In this document: positions 466 to 22,266 of the stretch, piece by piece
Layout of the letters: each line of letters starts with the position of its first letter
Position numbering within the stretch: the first letter of the stretch is position 1
Origin: Auanema rhodensis
Lineage: Eukaryota; Animalia; Nematoda
Direction: 5' to 3'
Assembly: GCA_964057225.1 (NCBI GenBank)
Contig: OZ059896.1
Location: 16,306,001 to 16,370,000, forward strand
Length of the DNA: 64,000 nt
Notes under the pieces: model-generated
What the model was told of the DNA's origin: nothing
Seen by the model: only the letters and a program-made list of their open reading frames with translations
Databases searched by the model: none
Made by a program: the position numbers and the translations under genes

Positions 466-741
466 TTCTTCTTTCTTCTAACTTCCTAAGTAATTTTTAT
501 CCATACCACATGTTGTGTTATACATGTGGCATGACTAATTCTTTGTTTCAGGCTGACGACCGCCCACGAGAAGAGATCAGTCTTACATTTTTCAACGTTC
601 GCAGTCAGTGATTTTATTCCGTGCTTGTCTTGTTAATTCATCAATAAACCCTTTTCTACATATTCGCTTTGTGTTTTACTTCCAACCATACTATACACTT
701 GTGGTATAACGCCACAATTCTGAAAAGAAAGGTAAGCATTC

Positions 742-860
742 GCTTACGACCATACCACGTTGAAAATACGCCATCCCGTCCGATCTGGCAAGTCAAGCAA
801 CGTTGGGCCCGGTTAGTACTTGGATCGGAGACGGCTTGGGAATCCCGGGTGCCGTAAGCT
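742..860 (+). rRNA. 5S rRNA (copy 1)
   Basis: GCTTACGACCATACCACGTTG...AGTACTTGGATCGGAGAC...GTAAGCT followed by an oligo-T Pol III terminator; near-identical to nematode 5S. Confidence 0.98.
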
Positions 861-961
861 TTTTCTTTTTCTCACTTTCTCATCTAGTTTGTAATCAGTA
901 GTTACCTATATGGTATACGGTTATCTGGAAATGTTTTCATTTTCCGAGACAATTCTTAGAC

Positions 962-1102
962 AGCTTTGCGCAGTGGCGATAACGTGACCAATGAGGCTTT
1001 GCCGAGGTGCGTTTATTGCTGGTTGAAAACTTTTCCCAATTACCCGCGATATTCCCTGAAACATGGGTGATATACGCAATTTTTGAATGCCTGATAAGGC
1101 TG
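962..1102 (+). ncRNA. U4 spliceosomal snRNA (copy 1)
   Basis: AGCTTTGCGCAGTGGC 5' end (U6 stem II), k-turn stem-loop, TGCTGGTTGAAAACTTTTCCCAAT, Sm site AATTTTTGA, 3' hairpin GCCT-GATA-AGGC. Confidence 0.96.
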
Positions 1103-1212
1103 AATGGCATATTATGGAAGAATGTTCCACGTGAAAAGACGTCAATTTTCAAAATCAAACTAAAACGAACGGTTGCACTGCATACATATTCTGAAAAGAA
1201 AGGTAAGCATTC

Positions 1213-1331
1213 GCTTACGACCATACCACGTTGAAAGTACGCCATCCCGTCCGATCTGGCAAGTCAAGCAACGTTGGGCCCGGTTAGTACTTGGATCGGA
1301 GACGGCTTGGGAATCCCGGGTGCCGTAAGCT
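1213..1331 (+). rRNA. 5S rRNA (copy 2)
   Basis: Full 119-nt copy with oligo-T terminator. Confidence 0.98.
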
Positions 1332-1432
1332 TTTTCTTTTTCTCACTTTCTCATCTAGTTTGTAATCAGTAGTTACCTATATGGTATACGGTTATCTGGA
1401 AATGTTTTCATTTTCCGAGACAATTCTTAGAC

Positions 1433-1573
1433 AGCTTTGCGCAGTGGCGATAACGTGACCAATGAGGCTTTGCCGAGGTGCGTTAATTGCTGGTTGAAAA
1501 CTTTTCCCAATTACCCGCGATATTCCCTGAAACATGGGTGATATACGCAATTTTTGAATGCCTGATAAGGCTG
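1433..1573 (+). ncRNA. U4 snRNA (copy 2)
   Basis: Full copy; variant GCGTTAATTGC. Confidence 0.95.
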
Positions 1574-1683
1574 AATGGCATATTATGGAAGAATGTTCCA
1601 CGTGAAAAGACGTCAATTTTCAAAATCAAACTAGAACGAACGGTTGCACTGCATACATATTCTGAAAAGAAAGGTAAGCATTC

Positions 1684-1802
1684 GCTTACGACCATACCAC
1701 GTTGAAAGTACGCCATCCCGTCCGATCTGGCAAGTCAAGCAACGTTGGGCCCGGTTAGTACTTGGATCGGAGACGGCTTGGGAATCCCGGGTGCCGTAAG
1801 CT
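1684..1802 (+). rRNA. 5S rRNA (copy 3)
   Basis: Full copy. Confidence 0.98.
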
Positions 1803-1903
1803 TTTTCTTTTTCTCACTTTCTCATCTAGTTTGTAATCAGTAGTTACCTATATGGTATACGGTTATCTGGAAATGTTTTCATTTTCCGAGGCAATTCTTA
1901 GAC

Positions 1904-2044
1904 AGCTTTGCGCAGTGGCGATAACGTGACCAATGAGGCTTTGCCGAGGTGCGTTTATTGCTGGTTGAAAACTTTTCCCAATTACCCGCGATATTCCCTG
2001 AAACATGGGTGATATACGCAATTTTTGAATGCCTGATAAGGCTG
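1904..2044 (+). ncRNA. U4 snRNA (copy 3)
   Basis: Full copy. Confidence 0.95.
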
Positions 2045-2082
2045 ATTTGCATATTATGGAAGAATGTTCCACGTGAAAAGAC

Positions 2083-2421
2083 CGTTCCATATTGGTTCCT
2101 AGGGTTCCGGCTAGGTAACCATATGGACTTTAATAGTGTGAATGCCTTTGTAAAAGTAACAGAGAGTAGAGAAAAAGAAGTTTATTCAGAATATGGAAAT
2201 ACAATTATAAAAGCAAAATACAATAATCAAATAAATGAAACTACATGTTATGAGAAAGCCAACCTAGTTGCTTTCTCAGGGGTTTATATAGAAAAATATT
2301 AATTACAAATATAATTGAATTTATACAAAAAGTAGTTCAGGTCTAGTTTCTTATTGAATTCCATTAACCAAAAGTCGGTTGACGTTGTCAACCGCCTTCT
2401 TTATAAGACACGTATGGAACA
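2083..2421 (-). repeat. 3' LTR of the gag-only element
   Basis: Direct repeat of 5535-5873; termini CGTTCCATA...TATGGAACA on + strand. Confidence 0.95.
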
Positions 2422-2664
2422 TGCCTTATATTGAAAAAGTAGCTGACCTCAGCTATAAGAAATTAGACTTTTTTAGGAAAAGAAACAAAAGAGAAAAAAA
2501 TATATATATATATAAATGAATTAGAATTGGAATACTAGAATAGGAATAATAGTGTAATAGGAATAATATAAAAAAAAAAATGAAAACAATATAAAAAGAA
2601 AAAAGAAAAGAAATGAAAAGAAAAGAAAAGAAAAGAAAAACTCTGAATTCACCTCGTGCAGCTG

Positions 2665-2901
2665 TTATCCTTCTTCCTCCTCGATTTGTCCCAGCTGGAA
2701 GTCTGTCGCGGGTTGCCGGTCGGCGACCGTCCATATGTGGAACAGGCTGACGTCTGTCAGCAGTTCCGTCGCCTGGCCTGCTATCATCATTTTCTTTCTT
2801 TTCTGGTCCGGAGTGGTGGCGCGCGTCGCCATTAGTATCCTTAAGGCCTGGCTGATCAGGTCTCCCGCCTTCCTAATCGACTGGTTAGTCGATTCCATCA
2901 T
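2665..2901 (-). CDS. 78-aa small ORF overlapping the gag stop codon (unknown function)
   Basis: ATG overlaps the gag TGA (GTA-TGA-TG); basic KRKK patch and acidic tail; no recognised homology. Confidence 0.4.
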   Translation of the reverse strand: MMESTNQSIRKAGDLISQALRILMATRATTPDQKRKKMMIAGQATELLTDVSLFHIWTVADRQPATDFQLGQIEEEEG

Positions 2902-4403
2902 ACTTTCTTCTGTCCAGCTCTTGTGGATCTCTTCCTTCTGCTATCATATCGATCGTTTCCTCTGCTGTTGTATCGATCATTGTATCTATCGTACCGTTGG
3001 GGGCTACGATAATTGTTGTATCCTCGTTGATATCCATTGTTTCTGTTATCCTGTCTGAAGTTGTGACGGTTATTTTGTCGATCCTCTTGGTATCTTGGTG
3101 AGCGGTATCCTTCTCTTCTTTGATTCCATTGCTCTTGTGGGTGTTGTGGTCTTGATTGATTTCCATAGAATGTTCTTGATTGGTGTGTTTGTGATCCGTC
3201 ATAGATTTTCTCCTGTTGTGATGCTCTCATGTGGTTTATGAGACCGTTATTAATCTCTAGTTGTTCCACGTCTTTAATCAAGTTGTTGACCAAGAGCGAA
3301 GGATCCTCGTCAGCTTCCACAGTTTCGGCAATAGTCACGGCTGCATCAAAGGTGATAGGGCTGCGGTTATTGACATGTGTTCTTAAAGTCTTTCGTAGTC
3401 CTCCTAAGAATGAAACTCGTAGTATTCTTTCATCGGCTGTCGAGTCCATGTTGCATGATTCATAGGCAAGGTTTCTGCAGCGTTGAGCGAAATTTTGTAC
3501 CGTTTCGTGCTCTCCTTGTTTCAAATGAGTGAGTTTTGTGAATGCTGCATCTCTCTTTTCTGGAGGTTGTAATTTCTCCGATAGTATGCGTTTGACGTGG
3601 TTCCATCCCTGGCGTAAGTCTTCTGCTGGTATAGTTCGAAGAGCTTCAGCGGCTCTATCCGTTCCGAGAAGTAGATAGAGATGGGAAAGTCTCTCGGCAA
3701 TAGGGACTTGAAGGGCATCGAAATATCCTTCTAGTCTTTGCATGTAGAGGTTGAATGGAACCGATCCATCATAAAGCGTAGGTTTGTGATGGCGAATAGA
3801 AACGTTGTGGGCTCTTGCAATAGGAGAGTTGTCTTGCTCCATCTGCTCTGCCATTTGAGGGCGACTTCTCTGCTCTGTAACATTCGAAGTCAAATTTACG
3901 TTATTGTCTGACGAAGAAGAGACAGGAGACAGAGAGTGCCCGTGCAAAGATTGATCAGTGGAAGAGGGAGAGTTTCTAGGAATAGGAGAGGTGAGGATTT
4001 CCGCATTTGCGGTTTGAACAAGGCGTTGAGGAGAAGTGTGATTTGGAGGACAAGTGTTAGTGCCGGTATTAACAACTGTTTTTGGAGAGTGAGAAGAGCG
4101 TTTGGGCGTGGATTTACTGGATGATGCTTTATTCTTATTCAAGCTAATTGCATGCCTAGTAGTTTTAATAGCAGTAGTATAAAGTTTCTTAGCAGTTAGC
4201 GGTGTACCCGGAATAGGGGGTAATTTCTTTGATTTCGCGTTCGTTTTCGGATATTTCGCATCTGGTCGGAATGCATCCGGTGGTCCTCTTTTTCTTTGGT
4301 TTCTATGCAGTGCTGCTTCCACTGTCTGAGTTTTCTCTGCGCTATTCGTAGCATTTTGGGCAATATTTCCCGGCGGAGGGTTTTGATTCGCTGCGTCAGC
4401 CAT
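2898..4403 (-). CDS. Ty3/gypsy Gag (501 aa): disordered N-terminus, capsid domain, R/N/Y-rich C-terminus without zinc knuckle
   Basis: PTLYDGS...LKQGEHETVQNFAQRCRNLA...FLGGL...TFDAAVTIA capsid motifs; ATG in AAAG-ATG-G context 13 nt after a TTCCAG acceptor. Confidence 0.92.
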   Translation of the reverse strand: MADAANQNPPPGNIAQNATNSAEKTQTVEAALHRNQRKRGPPDAFRPDAKYPKTNAKSKKLPPIPGTPLTAKKLYTTAIKTTRHAISLNKNKASSSKSTPKRSSHSPKTVVNTGTNTCPPNHTSPQRLVQTANAEILTSPIPRNSPSSTDQSLHGHSLSPVSSSSDNNVNLTSNVTEQRSRPQMAEQMEQDNSPIARAHNVSIRHHKPTLYDGSVPFNLYMQRLEGYFDALQVPIAERLSHLYLLLGTDRAAEALRTIPAEDLRQGWNHVKRILSEKLQPPEKRDAAFTKLTHLKQGEHETVQNFAQRCRNLAYESCNMDSTADERILRVSFLGGLRKTLRTHVNNRSPITFDAAVTIAETVEADEDPSLLVNNLIKDVEQLEINNGLINHMRASQQEKIYDGSQTHQSRTFYGNQSRPQHPQEQWNQRREGYRSPRYQEDRQNNRHNFRQDNRNNGYQRGYNNYRSPQRYDRYNDRYNSRGNDRYDSRRKRSTRAGQKKV

Positions 4404-5515
4404 CTTTGTTGGTTTCCTGGAAGGAAATTATTAATCAACGAAGACTGAGCTTAAATTATACAAAACGTAAGAGACAATATGGGGTTGGTATGCGCGACTC
4501 CTGTTCCTGTCAGGGGGCCAGCCTGCAGCGGGTCTCTAGTCGGAGAATAGCCTGGTCAGGTTCATACACGAGTCCGCAACTACGTGTGACCTTTAGCAAA
4601 GGACCAAGTTCTTATCTCTCGAAGAGGCATGAGATATGAGACAGTGGTCTGTGTATTGCTCCTTTTCAGTCATGGACAAGATCAGGTACACAGGCTTCTC
4701 ATACTCACTTTTCCAGACTTCTCTTACCTAAGCAAACCCCCAAAAGACGTTCCCTTTTAACCTTACTTCTGTTCCCCTGGGTCTTGCTAGGTGGGACCAC
4801 TCAACTTCAAAATATTCTTTAATTCTCATATGGGACCAAAAAGGGTTAATTTCAAATGATTGCGCGTCTTATATCAAAAAGTGTACGCCTCCGCGCGATG
4901 TCCCGAGAATGTCTGGTATTGTTTCTTACGGGGCTTTCTCATAAAAATGCGTTAGATATCAAGAATAGTGGTTTTGTTTATGAATCAATGTTTTCAGAAT
5001 GATTTATGAATAGATTTTCAAAATTAGCTTGTGATAAGAAGTTTTCAAGATGACTTATGGGTAAGTGTTGCAATATGAATAAATGTCTTTAAGATATTTC
5101 ATGAATTGATAGTTTTTAATATTATTCGTGGTTAAATATTTTGATATGCTTGTTCCAAAAAGAGTTTTTATGCATTATATGCTTTAAACATACAGGAAAG
5201 TAGAGGAATAAAGTAGGAATATAGATTGTAATAGATAATATGTGTAAGACATTTTTTTTTTTTCAAATAGATATATCAGAAATGATGTTAGAAGAATGAT
5301 ATTTAGAGATAAATTCGAATTACTAGATTAAATTGAAGTTTTTGTTTTAGATACAAAATTGACTTGAAAGTTTGAAATATAAAATTTAATTAGAATTTTT
5401 GGATATGAAATCAAGATAAATTTTTAGAGTAAAAAGGATTTCAAAGAAAGAGAAAGTAATTTAAAGGTGAGAAAAGTAGCGGCAATGGTCCATAGAGATT
5501 CGTCCCTTATAGACG

Positions 5516-5534
5516 AATCTCGGTGGAACCTCCA
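5516..5534 (-). other. Primer-binding site complementary to the tRNA-Gln 3' end
   Basis: + strand AATCTCGGTGGAACCTCCA equals the 3' end of metazoan tRNA-Gln plus CCA, directly adjacent to the 5' LTR. Confidence 0.88.
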
Positions 5535-5873
5535 CGTTCCATATTGGTTCCTAGGGTTCCGGCTAGGTAACCATATGGACTTTAATAGTGTGAATGCCAT
5601 TGTAAAAGTAACAGAGAGTAGAGAAAAAGAAGTTTATTCAGAATATGGAAATACAATTATAAAAGCAAAATACAATAATCAAATAAATGAAACTACATGT
5701 TATGAGAAAGCCAACCTAGTTGCTTTCTCAGGGGTTTATATAGAAAAATATTAATTACAAATATAATTGAATTTATACAAAAAGTAGTTCAGGTCTAGTT
5801 TCTTATTGAATTCCATTAACCAAAAGTCGGTTGACGTTGTCAACCGCCTTCTTTATAAGACACGTATGGAACA
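5535..5873 (-). repeat. 5' LTR of the gag-only element
   Basis: Direct repeat of 2083-2421. Confidence 0.95.
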
Positions 5874-5949
5874 AGACGTCAATTTTCAAAATCAAACTAG
5901 AACGAACGGTTGCACTGCATACATATTCTGAAAAGAAAGGTAAGCATTC

Positions 5950-6068
5950 GCTTACGACCATACCACGTTGAAAGTACGCCATCCCGTCCGATCTGGCAAG
6001 TCAAGCAACGTTGGGCCCGGTTAGTACTTGGATCGGAGACGGCTTGGGAATCCCGGGTGCCGTAAGCT
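5950..6068 (+). rRNA. 5S rRNA (copy 4)
   Basis: Full copy. Confidence 0.98.
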
Positions 6069-6169
6069 TTTTCTTTTTCTCACTTTCTCATCTAGTTTGT
6101 AATCAGTAGCTACCTATAGGGTATACGGTTATCTGGAAATGTTTTCATTTTTCGAGACAATTCTTAGAC

Positions 6170-6310
6170 AGCTTTGCGCAGTGGCGATAACGTGACCAAT
6201 GAGGCTTTGCCGAGGTGCGTTTATTGCTGGTTGAAAACTTTTCCCAATTACCCGCGATATTCCCTGAAACATGGGTGATATACGCAATTTTTGAATGCCT
6301 GATAAGGCTG
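6170..6310 (+). ncRNA. U4 snRNA (copy 4)
   Basis: Full copy. Confidence 0.95.
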
Positions 6311-6420
6311 ATTTGCATATTATGGAAGAATGTTCCACGTGAAAAGACGTCAATTTTCAAAATCAAACTAAAACGAACGGTTGCACTGCATACATATTCT
6401 GAAAAGAAAGGTAAGCATTC

Positions 6421-6539
6421 GCTTACGACCATACCACGTTGAAAGTACGCCATCCCGTCCGATCTGGCAAGTCAAGCAACGTTGGGCCCGGTTAGTACTT
6501 GGATCGGAGACGGCTTGGGAATCCCGGGTGCCGTAAGCT
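6421..6539 (+). rRNA. 5S rRNA (copy 5)
   Basis: Full copy. Confidence 0.98.
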
Positions 6540-6640
6540 TTTTCTTTTTCTCACTTTCTCATCTAGTTTGTAATCAGTAGTTACCTATATGGTATACGGT
6601 TATCTGGAAATGTTTTCATTTTCCGAGACAATTCTTAGAC

Positions 6641-6781
6641 AGCTTTGCGCAGTGGCGATAACGTGACCAATGAGGCTTTGCCGAGGTGCGTTTATTGCTG
6701 GTTGAAAACTTTTCCCAATTACCCGCGATATTCCCTGAAACATGGGTGATATACGCAATTTTTGAATGCCTGATAAGGCTG
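6641..6781 (+). ncRNA. U4 snRNA (copy 5)
   Basis: Full copy. Confidence 0.95.
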
Positions 6782-6891
6782 ATTTGCATATTATGGAAAA
6801 ATGTTCCACGTGAAAAGACGTCAATTTTCAAAATCAAACTAAAACGAACGGTTGCACTGCATACATATTCTGAAAAGAAAGGTAAGCATTC

Positions 6892-7010
6892 GCTTACGAC
6901 CATACCACGTTGAAAGTACGCCATCCCGTCCGATCTGGCAAGTCAAGCAACGTTGGGCCCGGTTAGTACTTGGATCGGAGACGGCTTGGGAATCCCGGGT
7001 GCCGTAAGCT
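6892..7010 (+). rRNA. 5S rRNA (copy 6)
   Basis: Full copy. Confidence 0.98.
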
Positions 7011-7111
7011 TTTTCTTTTTCTCACTTTCTCATCTAGTTTGTAATCAGTAGTTACCTATATGGTATACGGTTATCTGGAAATGTTTTCATTTTCCGAGAC
7101 AATTCTTAGAC

Positions 7112-7252
7112 AGCTTTGCGCAGTGGCGATAACGTGACCAATGAGGCTTTGCCGAGGTGCGTTTATTGCTGGTTGAAAACTTTTCCCAATTACCCGCGAT
7201 ATTCCCTGAAACATGGGTGATATACGCAATTTTTGAATGCCTGATAAGGCTG
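7112..7252 (+). ncRNA. U4 snRNA (copy 6)
   Basis: Full copy. Confidence 0.95.
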
Positions 7253-7362
7253 ATTTGCATATTATGGAAGAATGTTCCACGTGAAAAGACGTCAATTTTC
7301 AAAATCAAACTAGAACGAACGGTTGCACTGCATACATATTCTGAAAAGAAAGGTAAGCATTA

Positions 7363-7481
7363 GCTTACGACCATACCACGTTGAAAATACGCCATCCCGT
7401 CCGATCTGGCAAGTCAAGCAACGTTGGGCCCGGTTAGTACTTGGATCGGAGACGGCTTGGGAATCCCGGGTGCCGTAAGCT
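7363..7481 (+). rRNA. 5S rRNA (copy 7)
   Basis: Full copy. Confidence 0.98.
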
Positions 7482-7582
7482 TTTTCTTTTTCTCATTTTC
7501 TCATAAAGTTTGTAATCAGTAGTTACCTATAGGGTATACGGTTAACTAGAAATGTTTTCATTTTCCGAGACAATTCTTAGAC

Positions 7583-7723
7583 AGCTTTGCGCAGTGGCGA
7601 TAACGTGACCAATGAGGCTTTGCCGAGGTGCGTTTATTGCTGGTTGAAAACTTTTCCCAATTACCCGCGATATTCCCTGAAACATGGGTGATATACGCAA
7701 TTTTTGAATGCCTGATAAGGCTG
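7583..7723 (+). ncRNA. U4 snRNA (copy 7)
   Basis: Full copy. Confidence 0.95.
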
Positions 7724-7833
7724 ATTTGCATATTATGGAAGAATGTTCCACGTGAAAAGACGTCAATTTTCAAAATCAAACTAAAACGAACGGTTGCACT
7801 GCATACATATTCTGAAAAGAAAGGTAAGCATTC

Positions 7834-7952
7834 GCTTACGACCATACCACGTTGAAAGTACGCCATCCCGTCCGATCTGGCAAGTCAAGCAACGTTGGGC
7901 CCGGTTAGTACTTGGATCGGAGACGGCTTGGGAATCCCGGGTGCCGTAAGCT
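7834..7952 (+). rRNA. 5S rRNA (copy 8)
   Basis: Full copy. Confidence 0.98.
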
Positions 7953-8053
7953 TTTTCTTTTTCTCACTTTCTCATCTAGTTTGTAATCAGTAGTTACCTA
8001 TATGGTATACGGTTATCTGGAAATGTTTTCATTTTCCGAGACAATTCTTAGAC

Positions 8054-8194
8054 AGCTTTGCGCAGTGGCGATAACGTGACCAATGAGGCTTTGCCGAGGT
8101 GCGTTAATTGCTGGTTGAAAACTTTTCCCAATTACCCGCGATATTCCCTGAAACATGGGTGATATACGCAATTTTTGAATGCCTGATAAGGCTG
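8054..8194 (+). ncRNA. U4 snRNA (copy 8)
   Basis: Full copy; variant GCGTTAATTGC. Confidence 0.95.
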
Positions 8195-8304
8195 ATTTGC
8201 ATATTATGGAAGAATGTTCCACGTGAAAAGACGTCAATTTTCAAAATCAAACTAAAACGAACGGTTGCACTGCATACATATTCTGAAAAGAAAGGTAAGC
8301 ATTC

Positions 8305-8423
8305 GCTTACGACCATACCACGTTGAAAGTACGCCATCCCGTCCGATCTGGCAAGTCAAGCAACGTTGGGCCCGGTTAGTACTTGGATCGGAGACGGCTT
8401 GGGAATCCCGGGTGCCGTAAGCT
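8305..8423 (+). rRNA. 5S rRNA (copy 9)
   Basis: Full copy. Confidence 0.98.
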
Positions 8424-8524
8424 TTTTCTTTTTCTCACTTTCTCATCTAGTTTGTAATCAGTAGTTACCTATATGGTATACGGTTATCTGGAAATGTTTT
8501 CATTTTCCGAGACAATTCTTAGAC

Positions 8525-8665
8525 AGCTTTGCGCAGTGGCGATAACGTGACCAATGAGGCTTTGCCGAGGTGCGTTTATTGCTGGTTGAAAACTTTTCCC
8601 AATTACCCGCGATATTCCCTGAAACATGGGTGATATACGCAATTTTTGAATGCCTGATAAGGCTG
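8525..8665 (+). ncRNA. U4 snRNA (copy 9)
   Basis: Full copy. Confidence 0.95.
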
Positions 8666-8775
8666 ATTTGCATATTATGGAAGAATGTTCCACGTGAAAA
8701 GACGTCAATTTTCAAAATCAAACTAAAACGAACGGTTGCACTGCATACATATTCTGAAAAGAGAGGTAAGCATTC

Positions 8776-8894
8776 GCTTACGACCATACCACGTTGAAAG
8801 TACGCCATCCCGTCCGATCTGGCAAGTCAAGCAACGTTGGGCCCGGTTAGTACTTGGATCGGAGACGGCTTGGGAATCCCGGGTGCCGTAAGCT
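8776..8894 (+). rRNA. 5S rRNA (copy 10)
   Basis: Full copy. Confidence 0.98.
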
Positions 8895-10078: not shown

Positions 10079-10174
10079 ATTTGCATATTATGGAAGAATG
10101 TTCCACGTGAAAAGACGTCAATTTTCAAAATCAAACTAAAACGAACGGTTGCACTGCATACATATTCTGAAAAG

Positions 10175-11246: not shown

Positions 11247-14200
11247 TTATTCTTCTTCATTCCTCGGAAGCCATATTTCGTCTTCATTTTCATCTTCTGG
11301 CTCTGTATCTATGCTATCCTTGTTGTTCCTGTTGATCACTTCTATTATTTCGATGTCGCTATCTTCTTCTGCTTGACTTTCTCGAAACCTTGCGCGAGTG
11401 TTGTAAGAGATGTTTTGTGAAGCAGGAGAGAAGATTTTCAAGTTATCTTTGTGGATATCTTGTAGTTTTCCTGATGAATTTCTGATTTGAACTTTTGATC
11501 CTTCTACGTTGATGACTTCGCATGGTCCATCATAGCTTTTCCGAAGCTTTTGGCCGATTTGGTGTGATTTTATAGTCGTCATCACCATGTCGCCCGGTTG
11601 AATGTCTCTATGGTGTGCTCTTTGCGTTCTATCTTTCTTCTTTTTCGCATTTTCTTGATTTTTAGCTATGCGGTTCTTTATTATTTCGTCTCTCTTGTCC
11701 ATATCTGGTCTTCTTTGGAGTAATTCTTCAGAAATTTCTTGAATTTTGGTGATCGTTTCTGGTAATTCAGCGTCCATTGACATTCTGCATTCTTTACCGA
11801 ATAATGCAATGTATGGCGCAATCCCTGTAGTCGCGTGCTGAATATTGTTAATAGCAAAAGTGATTTTTGGTAATACAGTATCCCAGTCACTAAGGTCCTC
11901 TTTTAAGTAGTGGGTTAATCCTTCTTCGAGGGTTCGGTGAAGTCTTTCCACTTGTCCATTTGAGTTCTTTTGGTGTGGTAGTGTTGGTTCATGTTTGATT
12001 CCAAGTTTAGTACACATTTCTTCGAACTTTTTAGATACAAAGTTTGAACCTCTATCGGTGATCAAGCGATGGGGTGGTCCAAAAATGTAAACGAAATGTC
12101 TTAGAAATCGATCAATTGTGATTTCCGTTGTTATTTGTGGTACAGCAATTGTTGTTGACCATTTTGTAAATGCGTCTTGCATGGTAATGACGTAGGTACA
12201 GTTTCTTTTTGAAGGGGGAAATGGTCCCATTACGTCCATGTGGACTCGTTCAAATGGCTTGCTTGGTATCTCAAAATGACCTATTGGTTGTACCGTCATG
12301 GAATGTGGATCTTTTTTTCTTTGAGCACATTTAATGCAGTTCTTGATGAATATAGTAATGTCGTTCTGCATATTTGTCCAATAGAATCTTCTTAGAATTG
12401 CTTCTTTTGTTTTAATAATTCCTTGATGTGCTGCAATTGTAGGATCCTCATGAAAAACTTTGATTATTTCCTCAATTATGGGGTGTTCTTGTGGTATTAC
12501 GATAGCGGGTTGTGGCTTTTTGTCTGTTGGTTTTGTATAGAGCAAGTCATTTATGACACAATATCTGTCATTAGCTGTCATGTTCTTTTGTGCTCTATAT
12601 TCAATCTCCGCTATCGTCCGTTTAATCCAAGGGGTGCTTAGTTGAATTTCCTTTATTGTTGGTGTATTTATGGCGTTAATGTGAATTTCTTCCATTTTCT
12701 TCTTCTTTGTTTCCGGCTTAGCATCGTTAGCTTCTTCACCTATATATCGAGATAGAGCATCGCATACTTTATTTAATTGGCCTGCGCGATATTTTATTTC
12801 AATATCATATTCTTGGATGACCAGCTGGAACTTCGCAAGACGACCAAATAAGTCTCTGCGTGTCATTAAGCTGGTAAGAGGTCGATGGTCCGTAATACAT
12901 ATAGTATGAGTTCCAAGAATGTATGTACGGAATTGATTTAATGCATATACAAGGCCTAATGCTTCTATCTCGATTGGTGCGTAGTTACGTTCGGCTTTAA
13001 CTAGTTTTCTGCTTGCAAATGCGATAGGGTGTAGATTTTTCAGAGGTTGTTTTGGATCTTCCGGTTGTAATAATACAGCACCTATGGCGATGTTACTACC
13101 GTCGCTTTCAACTATAAACAAGCGGTCCGATTTAGGTGGGCTTAAAACGGGTGCCTGTATTAAACTTCTTTTAAGGAGGTCTAAAGCTTCTTGATGTTTG
13201 TTTTCCCATTTGAATTCAGTATCTGCCTTTGTCAGATCGTATAAAGGGCTTGCGATACGTGCAAAATCTTTCATGAATTTGCGAAAGAATCCAACCATTC
13301 CCAAGAATGCTCGTACACCTGTTGCATTCTTTGGTGCCGGATAATCTTGTATGGCGGCGACTTTTTGAGGGTCAGGTTTTATACCTTGACGTCCTACAAT
13401 AAGTCCTAGAAATTTCACTTCTGGTTGAGCAAAAGCGCATTTCTTAAGCTTTATCTTCATTCCCAATTCTTCTACTGCTTGCAGTAAATCATCGATATCT
13501 TTGAGATGTTGTTCTCTTGTATCAGATATAACTAATAGATCGTCCAAATAAACAAATAGTTTACAAGAACATTTACTTTGCAAATACCTTACTGCTGTTT
13601 GAAAGGTATGAGGGGCTCCACAAAGGCCCATCGGCATCCGTTTGTACTGGTATGTGCCGGATGTGGTCGTAAATGCTGTTAGTGGTCGATCTGATTTTCT
13701 CAAGGATATTTGAAAAAATCCTGACACTAAATCGAAGTTTGAGAAAAATTGGGCGCCTGCTGCCAAATCAACTATGTCAGAAATGCTTGGAATGACATAA
13801 GTTTGCTTGCGTGTGACATTATTTAAAGCTCGAAAATCTGTCACAAACCTATACGTGTCATCTTTCTTCTTAACTAGTACTACAGGGCTATTAAATAGAG
13901 ATGTAGAAGGCTCTATTATGCCTTGCTCAAGCATTTCTTTGACTTGTTTTTCAATTTCTTCCTGTTTTCCTAAGGGAATACGTGTTATTCTCGGCTTTGG
14001 CATATCCATATCTGTTCTCAATGGTATGGTATGCTCTATAGGACCTTTAAATAAGCCTATTTTCCTGTCCTCGTTAAGAAATGCCTCACGATGGCTTTCA
14101 ATTATTTTTGTAAGCTCATGTTTTTCTTCTTTCGTGAGATCAGCATTCTCTAGATCAAGATCTTTTATGAAGTCTCTTGGAAAATATGGTAGTTTACTCT

Positions 14201-17200
14201 CCCAATCGGCCTCTGGCGGAACATATGGTAGAATTGGCTTATGCTTAAAGGGTTCACAAGCCGGAATTTCTCCAATTATTGCCTGTCCGATGACTGAATT
14301 AGCTTCCATAGCTATTGTTTCATCGGTATTGTTACGGAACATAACATATACTCCACTGGTATCACGAAACGCAGTTGGATATAATGATTTTAATGCGCTT
14401 CCACTATCCCCTAAGACAACCACTTCGTTAGATTCTAGTGGTTTATCTGTCTTTATTGGGATAGGTGCCTCTTCATCAGGCTTTAATGTTTTTGTTCTTA
14501 AATTAATGATATTCACAGTTATCTCCGTATGCTTAATAGATTCGTTTCCTATTAATGGGATGGCATTGTTTCCAATCTCCAACCTCTTCTTGGATGGTTT
14601 AAGGCTGACGTCGATGTTTTCGCTGTCAAGCGCTTTCATGAAATCTAGTCCAATTAAAGCGGGAGCAGGACAGTCATGATCGTTTGAGACCAAAAAGGTG
14701 TGTTCGATCTCGTAACCGGCAATTTCAATTACAAGATTTATCTTTCCATAAAATGTGAAAGTGGACTTGTTGGCTGCCATCGCTACTAAATGTCTCTTCT
14801 TGACATTTTCGGCCATGTTCAGATATTTGAGGGTGGAGAGCCTAACATATGACACTGATGAGCCTGAATCCCATAAAGCTAAAATCAGTTTATCTTCAAC
14901 TGATATATATATTAATGGTAACTTTGTTTCCGCTGATACAATAGAAGCAACAAATGGTATTGCGATTGGAATAAATGTTACTAAAGCAGGATAGTATTGC
15001 TTCATGATGTTATCTGGCATCTGTTGGTCTGGGCGGCTTACAAGTTCCAATGTTTCTTCATAGCTTGGGGGCTCATTATCTATTTCGTGGACATGCATTA
15101 CGGTTAGTGGAGTGGCTCTGAAGAACCAAAATTTAGCAACAACGAAAAGAATTATTAATACTGCGGCAATCGTAACCATTGATCCTATGAAGATGAGTGT
15201 TCTCTCAATTGATCCTATTAGAAATTGCTTTACGCTAGTCCAGGCGGAAGTTGTGAACTCAGCTGCTTTAGAGATATAGTCACTGCCCTTTTTCAAAAGA
15301 TTAAAGGCGGACGTAATTTTTGGATCGTTGTGAATAGTATGTAAAACATGGTTCTGTCGTATGGATGCTAAACTTGCTCCATATGCAATAGCTGTTGACA
15401 TTGAGTAAACTCTCAATGATAAATTGGTGTATAAGTTAGCGCCTGTGAACTTTAAAGGTGTTAATTGGTGGTATTGCGCTTTATCAAAGAGTGATATTGG
15501 TTTTACTTCAACCGATCCATTTATATTTATCCATTCTCCATTTTGATAGTATACATCTGTGGGTACATGTTCGCAATCTATCTCTTTTCCATGTGTTAAT
15601 AAGTCTCTTGATCCTGGAGCAGCAAAATATAATCTCTCATCTTCTGTTATTACTGGTGTTTCCAAATAGCATGTATCATTGATCTTATGATTATGATAAA
15701 CAGCTTTAGGTTGAAGAGGTAGGCATATATGAACATGAACTATATCGCTGCCTACGAAACGGGCTGCAATATCCTCTCTTCCTAAAATAGTCCTCATTGC
15801 TATTGTAGGTTCTATGTGTAAAATAGAACGCCATAGCTCGAGGTATCTATTTTGAATCTCACATATGGATTCATAAGATTCCATGAAATGTTTCTGTAGC
15901 TCTTCTTGTATGAGTGTTGTTGTATATTGTAGATGATCTTGAGCTATTCTGCGAGATACGTTGAGGTTGAATTGTATTTCGTTGTTCACTTTTGACGCTG
16001 TATACGTTGCCTGAGCCTGAATTTCTCTGGTTTCTACGGGTGGAGATGATGTTCTTTGTTTCCTTAAGATTCGTGACGCCGTGTCAGTGACTGTTGCTAA
16101 TGTTGTTGGCGAGAGAGTCGTAGTTATCGCGGCTGTTGTCGTCTCAACTGTGGTTGTCGTCGGAATCCGAGTCGTATGGCTTTTAGTTGTCTCCTGAACT
16201 AGTGAAGCGGGTTTGTCCGTTGTTGTCGTTAATGACAGTCTTCTAGTCAGATAAGGCGGTGTTTCAATATCCTCTAACAGTGGTAAAAATGTTTTTATAA
16301 GTAGCTGGCGTGTATCTGCGCTTGGGTTTTGAATGCGAGGGTGGGGCCCTATCGATATACCGTAGTTAGAATCTTTATCTCGATATAATTTGTTGGTATC
16401 TGGCACATTGATTGTTAATTGTCGGAACTTTTCATCATCTACGGCTGCTGCTGTTTTATTTGGCCTTATTACTCGCAATGTCATCAAGTTATGGTATAAG
16501 TAAAGAGTGTTTCTAAGTACTATACGCTCATCAGCATTGTCAGTTGTTAGAGTTGGTCGGATCGGCGGCATGTTCACAAAGGATTTTAAAACCTCTTGCC
16601 TTGATGGTACCGACAGATTGTTTTCAAATATTACCGGTGTATAAGCTAACTCCATCGCTATGCTTTCGGCTCTTTCACGGTAGGATCCGTCTTTTTCTAG
16701 CAGTTTTTCGTCAAATTCGTGTGCTGTTAATCTGTCACCTATCTGTTCTAATAATTGTTGTGAGGTTAAATACCGTATAGCGCCGCGAGTGGTTGCTGCC
16801 AGTTCCTTTTGCGCAAGAAAATAAAGTATTGCTTCCTCAGGGTCGTGTATTTCGTATGTTTGAAGGAAACGTTGTATGGATTTATCAGATACGGGACTTC
16901 TTAAGAAGAAATAAAACTTCTCGGGATGTGCTGAAACCCAGTCAATAATTGAATATGAAGGGTTGACAGCTCGTCTGGCCTTTATAAGCGGTATTATCTG
17001 ATAAATACCAGGATTACTCATCACCGGTCGTAAGAAAGGATAAGGACAAATATTTAATATTAAAGTTTCAAAATCTTCCTGTTTTTGTATCCACTCCTTG
17101 TTTAATTCAACCGTGCATTCCGCAATTGCTCTTTTATCTCTTTTCGCCGGAAGTTTCTTATATTCTCTCTCTATTAAAACATGGATATTGGTGTCATTTG

Positions 17201-19952
17201 GGTACTGTGGTAAGAGAATGTAATTGCCAGTTGTGGTGTGGAAGATTGGCTGTTTAAAACAAGAAGATATTTGCTTCGGTATCTCTTTTTGATCGATTAC
17301 AAGGGCTGATTGAGTGGTTGGTAACAGAATAATGCCGTCTCCAATTATCACATCATATTCACTCATGTCGATATAGTTGCATCGATATTCATAAGGCTGT
17401 TTCTCCCATATGATGATTGAGGTATCTGATGCACATTCTCCATGATGCGCTAAGCATCCTTCAGTATTTAGTATTAAATTGGAGATTATAGTTTCATCTG
17501 GCATCCGTGTCATAACCCCTCTTTCGATAACCAATCTGGCTTTCTCTTCACATAGCTCATTATTAAAAGATCGGCCTGGCGAGAAGGAAGGCTCGTCAGT
17601 TGCATATGTTATGCTGTCGATCTTCTTTAATTCACTCCAATTCCATCTTCTATCTCTCACTGCCAGTCTGCATTCTGCAGCTGGTATCTTTTCAATTCTC
17701 GCTATCGTTGTATTGGTATCTCTAAGGAACAAAAGGTCTCTGATACACATTTTATGAATTTCTTTGGAGCATCTCCATGCATCCCATTCATGTGCCGTTT
17801 GATTCCTTGTATAAAGATGAACTTTTGTTCGTAAGATATGCTTTATTGGTGGTAATAAGCATTTTCGGAGAGATGGGGGACGGAGAAGGGCTCCTCCAGT
17901 AGCTTTAGTACATAGCTGGTATGCTTCAGCTGTTGTAACCAGTGATAAGATTACTGATAAAGCTACGGCTAAAGTCAAAGGAGATATCAGAGTCAAATTA
18001 TTGACTCTTGAGCCTCTACCTCTGCCTCTATTGTTGTTATTTCCCCTAAAGGTACTGTTATTTCTCTGTCTATTATTGCTCATTTCTTGATTTTGTGATG
18101 CATTATGGCTTCTTTGATACCCATTTTGATTTTGATTCTGATAATTTCGACCGCGGTCACCAAAATTGCGGTTCCTAGCAAATGGGTTTTGGAAATTCCA
18201 GCCTTTTTGATTTTTTGAAAATTTATGATAATTTTGATTGTTTTGAAAGTTTGGATGATAATTGTTATAATTATTATAATTTTGATAATTTTTATTATTA
18301 AAAGATTGATAACCTCTTGCCATACCTCTCCCACCATTGTTTCTGCGCGGGGGGAAAGTTCTTTCAATTGCGTTAACCAATAGCGCCTGAGGGTCTGCTA
18401 CTTGGTTTGCAATTGATTCCTCCCAGCGAGCACTATCAACAGCCTCAGCAAAAGTTTTGGGTTTTGCTCGAATTACCCCTGGGCGTATCGTATTTTTCAA
18501 GCCTCTCAAAAATGTGGACCTCAGAATGTGATCTTTATGAGTATCACTATTAGAGAAAGCATTTAAGCTGAGGTTTCTTAACGTTTGTGCAAAACCATCA
18601 ATTGATAAATCGCCTTGAGTGCTGTTTTGAAGTGTGATAAGGGCAGGGTCTTGATTGTATTCGGGACACAGCTTGGATGTTAACTCTTCTATTAGGGTAA
18701 CCCAAGGTCCAGCAGTTCTGACCTTGTCAGGTAGCTCTAAATAAGCTTCCTCTGCTCTATCATTTTTCAATAGTAATGGTAAAATAGTTAGTCTTTCGGG
18801 CATCACTAAGCCTAAGGCGTTAGAAAAGGTATTAAACTTTGCCACGAAATCTCTAAAGTTACGACTTCCGTCGTATATGGGGCAATAAGGTGAGCTTAAT
18901 GCGTGCGCAATGGTAGATTTACCAGCTCCCGGAAGACGTGGTGTCTCCGTCATGGTTGGTATATCCTCAGGGTATGTGCGAGATGACGTAATCCCTTTAC
19001 TGCCTGAGCTTCTCGCCGTTAAATTCTTACCTCCCTTTTTCGAGTTACCAGATGTTGGATAACTAATGGTAGGGGCGGCTGAGGAGAACCGCTTCCCTGG
19101 GAGTTTGATAATTCGACTCGTTGCCTGAGGCGTCGAATGTATTGATACGCTTGAGCTGGGTATAGCGCTATCTGACTTATTAAGGGTTGGGTTGGAGGAT
19201 ACGTGAAGAGAGTTATCAACTTGTTCTGTTGTTACCTCCCCTGGAGACAAATTCAAAACTTTTATTAAGCGAGCTGTTAAAGATTTCTTACTTTTGAACT
19301 TATCAGTAGTTAGTGATAAGGGCAAAACTTCGGTAATTTCCTGATTTGGTTCTACGGGATTATTAGAGGTTGAGCGCCTACGCGGTGTATTAGTTTTTCT
19401 TTTATTAATTTTTTTAGAATCAAGCTTTTTCGAATCAAGCTTATCAGTGATAACTGATAAGGGTGATTTGCGAATAGTGAGAGATGAGGTTTTATTAAGT
19501 TGTGAGTTTTCTATCGGAGTGGAAAATGCCTGCGGTGTTAGAGTTAGTTCAAAAGAAGATGCAAGATCGTTATCAGTATTAACTGATAAAGTTGATAAGT
19601 TTAGGTGGGGAGTGGCTGGTGAAGTATTAGAGGTTATTTGTTTTGGTTTTTGAATTTTTTGAATCTTTTTATTACTTTTAAAAGAGTGTACCTTTGGAGT
19701 TGAAGCTGAAGTTTGAATATTGTAGTCCTGAATATAGAAATCAGGGTCCTCCTCGGTGTTGTCCGGAGGTGAATACGTGCCTTCTCGAGGAATGAAGGTT
19801 TTCTCGACTTTGGGTTTTACCTCTTGTTCAGGCTCTTCAATCTGAACACTGAGGAGTCGAGTGCGGCTTCTGGTTCGACTGGCGACTGCGATGTCGTCAC
19901 TGGACTCAGAAGGGTATAGAGCAGGGACGGCCGAAGAGTATCTTCGTGCCAC
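11247..19952 (-). CDS. Gag-Env-Pol polyprotein (2901 aa from GTG; first ATG at 18953)
   Basis: Capsid motifs (PIYDGS...QGDLSIDGFAQTL...FLRGL); hydrophobic signal ~17922-17997; Cys-rich gB-like ectodomain; TM ~15120-15200; protease LWDSGS (~14862-14870); RT MPMGL and YLDD (~13539-13550); RNase H (ESDGS, EIEALG, TDHRPL); integrase HHCC plus DVMGP/TDRGS/VERLHR; GPY/F-like GPCEV. Confidence 0.96.
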   Translation of the reverse strand: MARRYSSAVPALYPSESSDDIAVASRTRSRTRLLSVQIEEPEQEVKPKVEKTFIPREGTYSPPDNTEEDPDFYIQDYNIQTSASTPKVHSFKSNKKIQKIQKPKQITSNTSPATPHLNLSTLSVNTDNDLASSFELTLTPQAFSTPIENSQLNKTSSLTIRKSPLSVITDKLDSKKLDSKKINKRKTNTPRRRSTSNNPVEPNQEITEVLPLSLTTDKFKSKKSLTARLIKVLNLSPGEVTTEQVDNSLHVSSNPTLNKSDSAIPSSSVSIHSTPQATSRIIKLPGKRFSSAAPTISYPTSGNSKKGGKNLTARSSGSKGITSSRTYPEDIPTMTETPRLPGAGKSTIAHALSSPYCPIYDGSRNFRDFVAKFNTFSNALGLVMPERLTILPLLLKNDRAEEAYLELPDKVRTAGPWVTLIEELTSKLCPEYNQDPALITLQNSTQGDLSIDGFAQTLRNLSLNAFSNSDTHKDHILRSTFLRGLKNTIRPGVIRAKPKTFAEAVDSARWEESIANQVADPQALLVNAIERTFPPRRNNGGRGMARGYQSFNNKNYQNYNNYNNYHPNFQNNQNYHKFSKNQKGWNFQNPFARNRNFGDRGRNYQNQNQNGYQRSHNASQNQEMSNNRQRNNSTFRGNNNNRGRGRGSRVNNLTLISPLTLAVALSVILSLVTTAEAYQLCTKATGGALLRPPSLRKCLLPPIKHILRTKVHLYTRNQTAHEWDAWRCSKEIHKMCIRDLLFLRDTNTTIARIEKIPAAECRLAVRDRRWNWSELKKIDSITYATDEPSFSPGRSFNNELCEEKARLVIERGVMTRMPDETIISNLILNTEGCLAHHGECASDTSIIIWEKQPYEYRCNYIDMSEYDVIIGDGIILLPTTQSALVIDQKEIPKQISSCFKQPIFHTTTGNYILLPQYPNDTNIHVLIEREYKKLPAKRDKRAIAECTVELNKEWIQKQEDFETLILNICPYPFLRPVMSNPGIYQIIPLIKARRAVNPSYSIIDWVSAHPEKFYFFLRSPVSDKSIQRFLQTYEIHDPEEAILYFLAQKELAATTRGAIRYLTSQQLLEQIGDRLTAHEFDEKLLEKDGSYRERAESIAMELAYTPVIFENNLSVPSRQEVLKSFVNMPPIRPTLTTDNADERIVLRNTLYLYHNLMTLRVIRPNKTAAAVDDEKFRQLTINVPDTNKLYRDKDSNYGISIGPHPRIQNPSADTRQLLIKTFLPLLEDIETPPYLTRRLSLTTTTDKPASLVQETTKSHTTRIPTTTTVETTTAAITTTLSPTTLATVTDTASRILRKQRTSSPPVETREIQAQATYTASKVNNEIQFNLNVSRRIAQDHLQYTTTLIQEELQKHFMESYESICEIQNRYLELWRSILHIEPTIAMRTILGREDIAARFVGSDIVHVHICLPLQPKAVYHNHKINDTCYLETPVITEDERLYFAAPGSRDLLTHGKEIDCEHVPTDVYYQNGEWININGSVEVKPISLFDKAQYHQLTPLKFTGANLYTNLSLRVYSMSTAIAYGASLASIRQNHVLHTIHNDPKITSAFNLLKKGSDYISKAAEFTTSAWTSVKQFLIGSIERTLIFIGSMVTIAAVLIILFVVAKFWFFRATPLTVMHVHEIDNEPPSYEETLELVSRPDQQMPDNIMKQYYPALVTFIPIAIPFVASIVSAETKLPLIYISVEDKLILALWDSGSSVSYVRLSTLKYLNMAENVKKRHLVAMAANKSTFTFYGKINLVIEIAGYEIEHTFLVSNDHDCPAPALIGLDFMKALDSENIDVSLKPSKKRLEIGNNAIPLIGNESIKHTEITVNIINLRTKTLKPDEEAPIPIKTDKPLESNEVVVLGDSGSALKSLYPTAFRDTSGVYVMFRNNTDETIAMEANSVIGQAIIGEIPACEPFKHKPILPYVPPEADWESKLPYFPRDFIKDLDLENADLTKEEKHELTKIIESHREAFLNEDRKIGLFKGPIEHTIPLRTDMDMPKPRITRIPLGKQEEIEKQVKEMLEQGIIEPSTSLFNSPVVLVKKKDDTYRFVTDFRALNNVTRKQTYVIPSISDIVDLAAGAQFFSNFDLVSGFFQISLRKSDRPLTAFTTTSGTYQYKRMPMGLCGAPHTFQTAVRYLQSKCSCKLFVYLDDLLVISDTREQHLKDIDDLLQAVEELGMKIKLKKCAFAQPEVKFLGLIVGRQGIKPDPQKVAAIQDYPAPKNATGVRAFLGMVGFFRKFMKDFARIASPLYDLTKADTEFKWENKHQEALDLLKRSLIQAPVLSPPKSDRLFIVESDGSNIAIGAVLLQPEDPKQPLKNLHPIAFASRKLVKAERNYAPIEIEALGLVYALNQFRTYILGTHTICITDHRPLTSLMTRRDLFGRLAKFQLVIQEYDIEIKYRAGQLNKVCDALSRYIGEEANDAKPETKKKKMEEIHINAINTPTIKEIQLSTPWIKRTIAEIEYRAQKNMTANDRYCVINDLLYTKPTDKKPQPAIVIPQEHPIIEEIIKVFHEDPTIAAHQGIIKTKEAILRRFYWTNMQNDITIFIKNCIKCAQRKKDPHSMTVQPIGHFEIPSKPFERVHMDVMGPFPPSKRNCTYVITMQDAFTKWSTTIAVPQITTEITIDRFLRHFVYIFGPPHRLITDRGSNFVSKKFEEMCTKLGIKHEPTLPHQKNSNGQVERLHRTLEEGLTHYLKEDLSDWDTVLPKITFAINNIQHATTGIAPYIALFGKECRMSMDAELPETITKIQEISEELLQRRPDMDKRDEIIKNRIAKNQENAKKKKDRTQRAHHRDIQPGDMVMTTIKSHQIGQKLRKSYDGPCEVINVEGSKVQIRNSSGKLQDIHKDNLKIFSPASQNISYNTRARFRESQAEEDSDIEIIEVINRNNKDSIDTEPEDENEDEIWLPRNEEE

Positions 19953-20365
19953 TTTGGAATCACTCTTGGTTCGGAAAAACCGCGAGTGTTTCGTTATATG
20001 GGGGATGTTGACGTTGAATGAGTGACAAGAAATTCGGGTCGGTTATAGGAAAAGTAAGAAACGTTTGAAGATTGAGACGTGGCGTCTTTCGCCGAGAATC
20101 GTTATTAGATGAGAAAGAGTTTTAAAATCTTGGCCTGAGATCTGGCTCCGCCTATCTACCGTATTCTCTTTTCTTTATTCTATTTCACAGATGTTCATCA
20201 ATTATAAATTTTTTTTGGTCTTCGCTCTTTCTAGCCTCAATCTTAATACTTTACTCTAATTGAATTCTTGAAAGTATGAGAGAGATTTTCAGTCGTTTTA
20301 TGTCCCCTTTTTATGCATAAGAATCTTTATATTTGTAGAGCTGAAAAAAAAAAATAAATCAAAGA

Positions 20366-20899
20366 ATGGCTTATGAAGGTCTATCGGGAATGACTTTTGT
20401 CTTGAGGAAGCTGTACGCTGACCTCGTCTTGTATGATCAAGACGAAGTGTTAGCTTATAGGCCGCACCCAGACATAATTAAGATGGTTGGTTAAAACAAA
20501 GAAACATGTTATCTTAATAAGAATTTTTAGTTTATTGAGGATTTAAAGATGCATTATCTGGGAAGGGGATTAGTAAACTTCTCCCTAATGCAGGAAATAG
20601 CGGATGAGGTTGCAGCTATCCGGCGATGGTGCCTCACCGACTTGTGCGCGCATTGGTATGAAAACCCAAATCTGGTCGCATCCCCTTGGAATTGGTATGA
20701 GCATAAGTCTCATGATTTTTATGATTATATGTCTAAAATTTTGTTTAAAATTTATTTATTTTATGAACAGTCTCCTATGGGCTTATTGCTAAGGACCTCT
20801 GCGGATTCGGTGTATTCGCAGTATTTAGAGCCTAGCGATGAGCCCATCTCACAGCCTATAGAATTTGTGAGACAGTTGCATTTTAAATGGGGCTTTTAA
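20366..20899 (+). CDS. Antisense two-exon accessory gene inside the gypsy element (exons 20366-20485 and 20531-20899; 162 aa, unknown function)
   Basis: AGA-ATG-G start; 40 codons; 45-nt GTTGGT...TTTTTAG phase-0 intron that removes an in-frame stop; exon 2 in frame with the 116-aa ORF; AATAAA at 20916-20921. Confidence 0.65.
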
Positions 20900-21869
20900 C
20901 AATTGTTTCATATATAATAAATACTTAATTTCACTCATTTGTTCTCTCTCTCTTTTTTTTTTTTTTCCATAACACAAACTTTGGTCGAGCTTATTAATAA
21001 AGAAGGAGTGCGTGCGCCTTGGGAAAATGGCTCATGTGCACGTTATTATTAAAAGCCGTGGGCGATTCTTTTTCGGAATGATTTTGGCATGCTAATGAGA
21101 TTCCGAGAATATTTAAAAAGATTGCTCATTTTACTAATGGACTGAGACCAAAGCTCGTTTATAAAACGCAATTTTTTTCTTTAAACCATTCTACTAATTT
21201 ATAGAATATTACAATATGAATACTACGGTAGGTGTGTGGGAATATCTTATGATGTTAGCAACAAAAATGAGCTGAGGAAGGTGACACATTCTACGGAGAA
21301 GAAAACATCCGTAGCCCATGTGCTTTCGCCAAAATGACCTGACAGGCAATAAAATTTGTGCCAGGATTTTTCGGACTAGTGTGGTCTATTCTCACAATCA
21401 AAAAAAAAATAAAAACCGAATAACGGCTCCCGCAAAAATATTTAGTTAGCATGCTCTTTTACGCCTGAATTTAACTTTCAAATCTCTAGTCCTGACCACA
21501 ATAAAATATTAAACTTTGTGCGCTTTCAAAATTTCATTCTAACTCCTCGTTGCCAAATAATAATGTAATCAAAATTTCGTTTGGTGAAATTGTCCCCTAT
21601 TTCGATCCAAACGTCCTCAAAAAAAAATGCAAGAGAAGCGGTGCAGGATACGGTATTATAAGGGTGGACACTCAGACGGTTTTATGAGTGGGGACAGCGG
21701 GTGAAATTTCAAAATTATGTAGTCCTAGCTCTCTAAAAGAGAGATCCCTTGTACCTGCACCTTATACAAGTTGGCGCCCTCATTATGTTGCTAACCGTGG
21801 AGGAAGTTTTAATTTAGATATCAAAATATGGACTTTTTATGCGAGTTTTTGCGACAAAAATGAGTTCGA

Positions 21870-21882
21870 GGTGGAACCTCCA
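21870..21882 (-). other. Primer-binding site (tRNA-Gln 3' end, 13 nt)
   Basis: + strand GGTGGAACCTCCA adjacent to the 5' LTR. Confidence 0.85.
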
Positions 21883-22248
21883 CGTTCCATTATGCTCCTA
21901 CGTATATTGAACAGACCATTGTAGTCTGCTCAACTACGCGTATAGTATTCCATAAGTGTAGCGGTATGGAAACAGAGCATAAGGATTACATAAGATAAGG
22001 AAATATATAGGTTTATTATACACAATACAATATCATTACAATACATTAACACAAGGATAAAGTAAACTACATTTACAAGACAAAGACTAATATATAAGAT
22101 TAACTAAGTTAGATGCAAACCGTCCATGGGCTTGCAAAGGGGCGAACTCCCGAATAGGGGCATGAGGGAAGGCGGTGCCATTCCTCATTCCTCTAGTCGG
22201 TCTGGCTCTAACCCTGCAGTTACATATATAGAGTCTCCGAATGGAACG
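21883..22248 (-). repeat. 5' LTR of the gag-env-pol element
   Basis: Direct repeat of 10175-10540. Confidence 0.96.
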
Positions 22249-22266
22249 AAAGAAAGGTAAGCATTC

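Follow-up and report, generated by a model that had tools for sequence, protein, structure and literature searches.

Young Ty3/gypsy elements in a nematode 5S-U4 array: the U4-to-5S spacer as a likely favoured rather than exclusive landing site

In the nematode Auanema rhodensis, the spacer between the U4 snRNA and 5S rRNA genes of a tandem array is likely a local hot spot for LTR retroelements, favoured rather than exclusive as a landing site. The array lies in a 64,000-nucleotide stretch of contig OZ059896.1 (hereafter the window) and is associated with an intact gag-env-pol Ty3/gypsy element (E3), a gag-only relative (E2) and a BEL-like LTR. Strict targeting of 5S genes is contradicted by the flanks of E3 copies in other sequencing runs, and Pol III targeting as a strategy common to these elements is unproven. 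The explanation that we favour, with a probability of about one half, is a recently active clade of elements with an oriented preference for an A-rich site, meeting an open and redundant array with two such sites per unit.

The array consists of a 471-bp tandem unit at 717..26280 (+) of the window, with 21 5S and 20 full U4 genes (Rfam, TRF). Each unit comprises, in order, 5S rRNA (119 bp), a spacer (101), U4 snRNA (139) and a second spacer (112) on the (+) strand. The 5S rRNA and U4 snRNA are thus on the same strand, whereas C. elegans pairs 5S with SL1; our search for literature on nematode 5S rDNA linked to U4 snRNA found only work on 5S-SL1. Three LTR elements lie in 9.7 kb of array as against none found in the 37.7-kb right flank, a contrast compatible with any attraction at the level of the array.

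E3 occupies 12,074 bp at 10175..22248 (-). Its two LTRs (10175-10540 and 21883-22248) are 366 bp each, identical, and end in CG...CG. They are bordered by a duplication, AAAG, at 10171-10174 and 22249-22252, corresponding to -18..-15 from the 5S start at 22267. A single open frame (11247..20042, (-); 2931 codons from stop to stop, with the first Met at 364) encodes gag, a gB-type env, protease, RT, RNase H and an integrase with an SH3-like domain and acidic tail, in that order. By Pfam, the env is a gB/Monjiviricetes-type fusion protein located between gag and pol; its residues 1368-1511 match PF24664 above the cutoff and PF00606 below it, and hydrophobic segments at 683 and 1612 bracket it. 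A first reading of the letters had proposed an autonomous, env-carrying gypsy, and this is borne out by an intact element with all gag-env-pol domains. The primer-binding site is of tRNA-Gln type (21870..21882, (-)), with 13 letters common to E2. The non-coding leader is about 1.8 kb long (20043-21869) and 363 codons of open frame precede the first Met; splicing or a non-AUG start is possible for this frame.

The pol order of E3 is PR-RT-RH-IN and its RT falls inside the nematode Ty3/gypsy clade. The nearest relatives of its pol are from rhabditid nematodes, the best ones being 51-61% identical, and in a tree of RT-RNase H (25 rows, with matches picked by hand and none dropped) E3 nests with Auanema, Heterorhabditis and Caenorhabditis elements. 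Together with the paired LTRs, the tRNA primer site, the target duplication and the position of env, these features identify E3, as judged from its sequence, as a member of the published nematode gag-env-pol Ty3/gypsy group with gB-type env (PMC13524379, citing Sacco et al. 2022; sections consulted). E3 resembles this errantivirus-like group in its gag-env-pol order, gB-type env, LTRs of 300-400 bp and tRNA-Gln primer. In the supplement of that eLife paper, 30 of the 36 nematode rows include eight with tRNA-Gln, two of which carry the 12 letters found in E2 and E3 (PMC13524379). A site preference and CG LTR ends like those of E3 were not found described in the sections consulted, and the main text holds no mention of insertion site, integration site, rDNA or Pol III (PMC13524379). 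The type of element is therefore already published, and E3 and E2 are additional members of the nematode group.

A homolog search limited to long proteins gave seven distant matches to E3, and two scans of viral contigs for the genomic context of its relatives found nothing. In a metagenome scan, the best 80 of 281 loci were all distant (at most 42%); none had this clade's env or gag, tRNA genes were absent from all of them, and a 5S-like match, of 35 bp, occurred in a single locus. These scans have no bearing on targeting. One gene model of C. japonica (P0017) fuses a histone H4 fragment to pol of the E3 clade, which may reflect integration next to a histone gene.

E2 (2083..5873, (-)) is a gag-only Ty3/gypsy-type element, with LTRs of 339 bp at 2083-2421 and 5535-5873 that differ by one mismatch and end in TG...CG. 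Its duplication, AGAC, at 2079-2082 and 5874-5877, corresponds to -76..-73 relative to the 5S gene that starts at 5950; in E2 alone, the duplication could formally also be read as 5 bp long. The gag frame (2898..4427, (-); 509 codons from stop to stop) carries a Retrotrans_gag domain (Pfam), and no other long ORF was found in the element. E2 has in common with E3 the primer-binding site, here at 5517..5534 (-), of tRNA-Gln type and abutting the LTR, as well as the end of the purine tract, the LTR termini, the 4-bp duplication and the target pattern. In both elements the LTR ends are inverted over 7-9 bp, the primer site adjoins the LTR without a gap, and the usual TG...CA is missing. With the cis signals of E3 and without pol, E2 reads as a separate non-autonomous family of E3's clade that likely borrows enzymes of the E3 type. 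Derivation of E2 from E3 by deletion was ruled out, as the two gags are 30% identical over 260 aa and the LTR bodies are no more similar than shuffles. The gag-only satellite of the sequence-only reading accordingly holds at the level of the clade, through primer site, purine tract, LTR ends and target pattern, and does not extend to gag or the LTR bodies.

The third element is visible as the end of a gag-like ORF (3..314, (+)), which in translation has three Cys/His knuckles and stops just before the LTR, and as a 3' LTR (345..716, (+)) with TG...CA ends and a purine-rich tract before it, after which the spacer resumes at -25. Pfam gives just a weak zinc-ribbon match for the ORF and no homologs were found; its top match in Atlas is an unnamed nematode cluster (0.91). 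The visible part is without pol, and its BEL/Pao motifs (three knuckles, TG...CA LTR) were recognised by eye with no named homolog. We take the BEL label from the knuckle spacing and motif pattern, by which the element is likely gag-only and BEL/Pao-like. The LTR marks the left border of the array, with one junction in the window, the other end beyond it and no readable duplication; insertion into the spacer and a simple array border are both possible readings.

All coordinates of the sequence-only reading are confirmed: E3 lies at -18..-15, E2 at -76..-73 and the BEL-like junction at -25. The same applies to their placement in the U4-to-5S spacer, which makes up 112 bp of the 471-bp unit, and to the orientation of E2 and E3, both on the minus strand with their 5' LTRs adjoining the 5S gene. 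The claim of three LTR elements landing by 5S genes stands for two proven insertions; the third is a single junction, not confirmed as an insertion. For a spacer named in advance, the chance of finding all three within it is p=0.013, rising to p=0.17 for any 112-bp arc and to p=0.05 for the observed 62-bp span. If only non-genic DNA tolerates insertions the value is p=0.145, and for the two proven insertions alone p=0.057. Clustering in the spacer is therefore suggestive by itself, not decisive. A fourth junction, at -76 (place 10113), was found in runs X3 and X5 from two studies and coincides with the position of the E2 duplication; the -76 site is at the same time +37 from the U4 end. This junction lies in a diverged spacer copy (four differences in 62 bp in X3), and its foreign side, which by eye is unlike the three known LTR ends and holds a small hairpin, could represent either another LTR end or the product of a rearrangement.

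A TATA-like stretch near -30, presumably with a role in nematode 5S transcription, is severed from the 5S gene by the junctions at -15 and -25. For TATA-like elements, background is given in the sections consulted of PMC3082873. Because these junctions split the gene from that stretch, the hit 5S copy is probably not spared, and the idea of the 5S promoter as a safe harbour, put forward from the sequence alone, becomes doubtful.

Copies of E3 outside the window provide the most direct view of its landing sites. Fifteen runs from four studies contain E3 or part of it, and 11 of the 15 have half or more of its words; with the precise duplications, this rules out an assembly artefact as the origin of the insertions. 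No RNA run was found among the runs containing E3. Contigs of four runs (X2, X3, X5 and X8, from three studies) were compared, using as query the spacer from -109 to -15 joined to one E3 LTR, without 5S letters. The comparison covers 29 pieces from 73 matching contigs and 20 of 21 loose ends, with 30 letters visible per flank. At least four E3 LTR flanks do not match the spacer (places 10168 in X3 and X8, 10173 in X8, 10540 in X8 and 10541 in X2), and E3 is thus not confined to the 5S spacer. Two more E3 flanks were seen in mixed cells at 10175, one each in X3 and X2; the X2 flank, where a 5,148-bp or an 812-bp contig abuts the LTR, is probably the partner of the flank at 10541. The 5.1-kb contig of X2 likewise shows no match to the spacer. 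The read-level mapping of copies that had been proposed from the window thus yielded, for E3 in these runs, flanks outside the spacer and, among the contigs listed, no E3 LTR joined to another spacer offset. The other junction of the BEL-like LTR was not seen among the 20 of 21 loose ends, and this was not used as evidence.

The depth ratio of LTR to internal sequence is 2.2-2.7 in the four runs, depth being a rough guide only, and by hand arithmetic E3 has about 7-8 full copies if two X3 contigs at a depth of about 160 are single-copy. On this estimate most E3 flanks went unseen. Furthermore, contigs resembling human sequence are filtered out, possibly with conserved 5S and tRNA genes among them, and the query was without 5S, so that the visible flanks are possibly biased against Pol III neighbours; further E3 copies at exactly -15 are possible. 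The absence of spacer cover in X2 and of U3-side flanks in X3 and X5 was kept out of the evidence, these being filtered records. At two U3-side flanks, the 30 letters beyond the LTR do not begin a 5S or tRNA gene by eye. The flank at 10173 ends in letters that we take to resemble the first ten bases of a tRNA-Ala gene, and if this likeness holds, the insertion would lie about ten bases inside the tRNA gene.

The same runs contain two related sequences of a different kind. At place 10126 in X5 there is a diverged U4-spacer unit at a depth greater than that of the window type, as would be expected if X5 contained another type of array or a related species. At place 10492 in X2 and X3 there is a sister LTR family, alike just near the U3 end and purine tract and at a depth greater than that of E3, which is a candidate helper for E2.

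A common sequence was found at the insertion sites. The motif TGAAAAG occurs exactly twice per 471-bp unit, at -81 and -21, both times on the + strand and in the U4-to-5S spacer. The E2 duplication overlaps the end of the first copy (2074..2080, (+)), and the last four letters of the second copy (-21..-15; 10168..10174, (+)) are the E3 duplication. The outside E3 flank at 10168 (two of four runs, X3 and X8) shows the same TGAAAAG in the same register, against a background of 0.0002 per position. In addition, the four letters beside the LTR fit an oriented W-N-A-S pattern, chosen post hoc, at six of six readable sites (background 0.07 each), comprising the two window duplications and four outside flanks read from one side. 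This pattern is not palindromic, and one further flank, from a mixed cell, may not fit it. W-N-A-S sites alone occur across the whole unit, and hence the position in the spacer is explained only by the longer motif, resting on three sites. An oriented sequence preference would account for the position as well as the common orientation of E2 and E3 without a tether. Orientation away from the 5S gene, as noted in the sequence-only reading, can be produced by an oriented motif. The 10168 flank could itself come from a diverged copy of the 5S spacer, and tethering would then gain weight.

We propose that an E3-type integrase favours a short A-rich sequence read in one direction, as predicted from these sites, and that in this array such a sequence occurs only in the U4-to-5S spacer. 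E2 would be mobilised by the same type of integrase. Insertions would be attracted by the motif together with the open chromatin of an array under heavy transcription, and since the array is 21-fold redundant, they could survive there even where a 5S gene is deprived of its upstream signal. Descriptions of TE insertions in 5S spacers, gypsy included, as relatively frequent point in the same direction (PMC10946416). For the BEL-like LTR and the -76 junction, the likely reading is that each arose separately in this accessible spacer or marks an array border. Integrase normally acts symmetrically, and a one-directional preference would therefore be unusual; an intact, recently active enveloped element that combines CG ends with such a target preference would be an unusual find.

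A possible alternative, which we consider clearly less probable, is loose tethering to the Pol III machinery, with contacts between integrase or RNase H and TFIIIC, TFIIIB or Pol III and with some scatter, more in the manner of Ty1 or DGLT-A than of Ty3. None of the three junctions in the window, nor the fourth in X3 and X5, is farther than 76 bp upstream from a 5S start, as tethering would have it; the 10173 flank may resemble a tRNA 5' end, and flanks running into 5S or tRNA genes may be under-detected in the four runs. Against these points stand the outside flanks, at least four of which are not spacer, with two U3-side flanks beginning no 5S or tRNA gene by eye, and the scatter of distances, of which -76 can equally be counted as +37 from the U4 end.

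The integrase bears on this alternative from both sides. It resembles the Ty3 and foamy virus integrases, Ty3 being the best sequence match among solved integrases, and E3 shares with Ty3 (and Tj1) the Ty3/gypsy class and an insertion upstream of a Pol III gene. In contrast to Ty3, no chromodomain was found by Pfam in the last 157 aa of the E3 integrase, which is thus not Ty3-like. About 60 acidic residues follow the SH3-like domain, and this tail is not conserved among 14 relatives, which argues against tethering. A structural model based on 65 sequences shows one barrel followed by a region of pLDDT about 55 or less, where the alignment depth is thin, and the single-sequence model has a pLDDT of 36. 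According to the sections consulted, Ty3 integrates 2-3 bp ahead of the transcription start and its chromodomain contacts Brf1 (PMC8632968, PMC6673722), whereas the present insertions lie at -15 (E3) and -73 (E2) and E3 has copies elsewhere. A dedicated targeting of the 5S promoter, as first envisaged, is not upheld in view of the non-spacer flanks, the missing chromodomain and distances looser than those of Ty3. In the sections consulted on Dictyostelium DGLT-A, this element targets tRNA genes at -13..-33 via RNase H and Tfc4 (PMC6101501, PMC5911963). The chromodomain is therefore not the sole route, and since DGLT-A uses RNase H and TFIIIC, a Pol III contact without it is conceivable in E3 also. 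The windows given there for DGLT-A (-13..-33), for Dictyostelium TRE5 at 5S genes (-37..-41) and for Ty1 (about 1 kb) would include the present distances (PMC5911963). However, targeting by DGLT-A, TRE5 and Ty1 rests on many insertions and on protein contacts, as compared with two proven sites and the outside flanks here.

If tethering were true, a safe-site strategy would extend to a compact animal genome, through a new contact. In its boldest form, which we regard as doubtful, these would be the first animal LTR elements homing to Pol III genes: a CG-ended, enveloped nematode gypsy clade and its gag-only dependants with a chromodomain-free tether to 5S and tRNA genes and an oriented A-rich site, on which a BEL-like family would have converged. 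Pol III-targeted LTR elements are described from yeasts and Dictyostelium, and the consulted sections of the review do not mention metazoa, nematode or elegans (PMC5911963). For animals, sequence-specific targeting of small-RNA genes is described, in the sections consulted, for non-LTR and Dada elements (PMC3706591). Our literature search, mostly of non-subscription papers, found no case of an LTR element directed to Pol III genes in animals, and on the C. elegans 5S cluster the consulted part of PMC8961926 mentions no insertion of an LTR element.

An unlikely alternative is insertion without any preference, in which broadly inserting elements accumulate in a redundant and open array, while insertions into 5S, U4 or the promoter of U4 are removed by selection or happen to be missed by the sample. 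The post hoc chance values (0.05-0.17, and 0.145 with genes excluded) agree with it, as do the count of only two proven insertions and the other sites of E3. TE insertions in 5S spacers, gypsy elements included, are relatively frequent, with none known inside the 5S gene and with animal cases from fish only, in the sections consulted of PMC10946416. The plant and fish cases resemble the present one in having LTR and other elements in the spacer and none in the gene (PMC10946416), whereas here a nematode 5S-U4 unit carries elements that are intact and very young. On the other side, two events at -76, a common 7-mer and an oriented pattern at six of six sites are improbable by chance, and with some 20 copies per gene, selection against a single hit copy should be weak.

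Very unlikely, finally, is recruitment to the array by a factor common to small-RNA and histone clusters (the snRNA machinery or an AT-hook factor) and not by Pol III itself: C. elegans ATTF-6 binds 5S-SL1, histone and piRNA clusters (PMC11822377, sections consulted), the C. japonica relative P0017 is fused to histone H4 and the spacer also flanks U4, but the histone fusion is one gene model with a putative reading and the outside flanks were not placed in such clusters.

At the array end (26277-26493), a U4 copy is broken after about 35 nt and joined to what looks by eye like a diverged 3' fragment of 5S; next comes a U5 snRNA gene in minus orientation (Rfam). From 26700 to 64000 no long retroelement ORF was found; this part holds intron-rich, ordinary host genes and many (GA)n tracts. 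From their translated pieces, we take these genes to include ones that are nicotinic receptor-like, ubiquitin-conjugating enzyme-like and ATG7-like, and one for an FMRFamide-like peptide.
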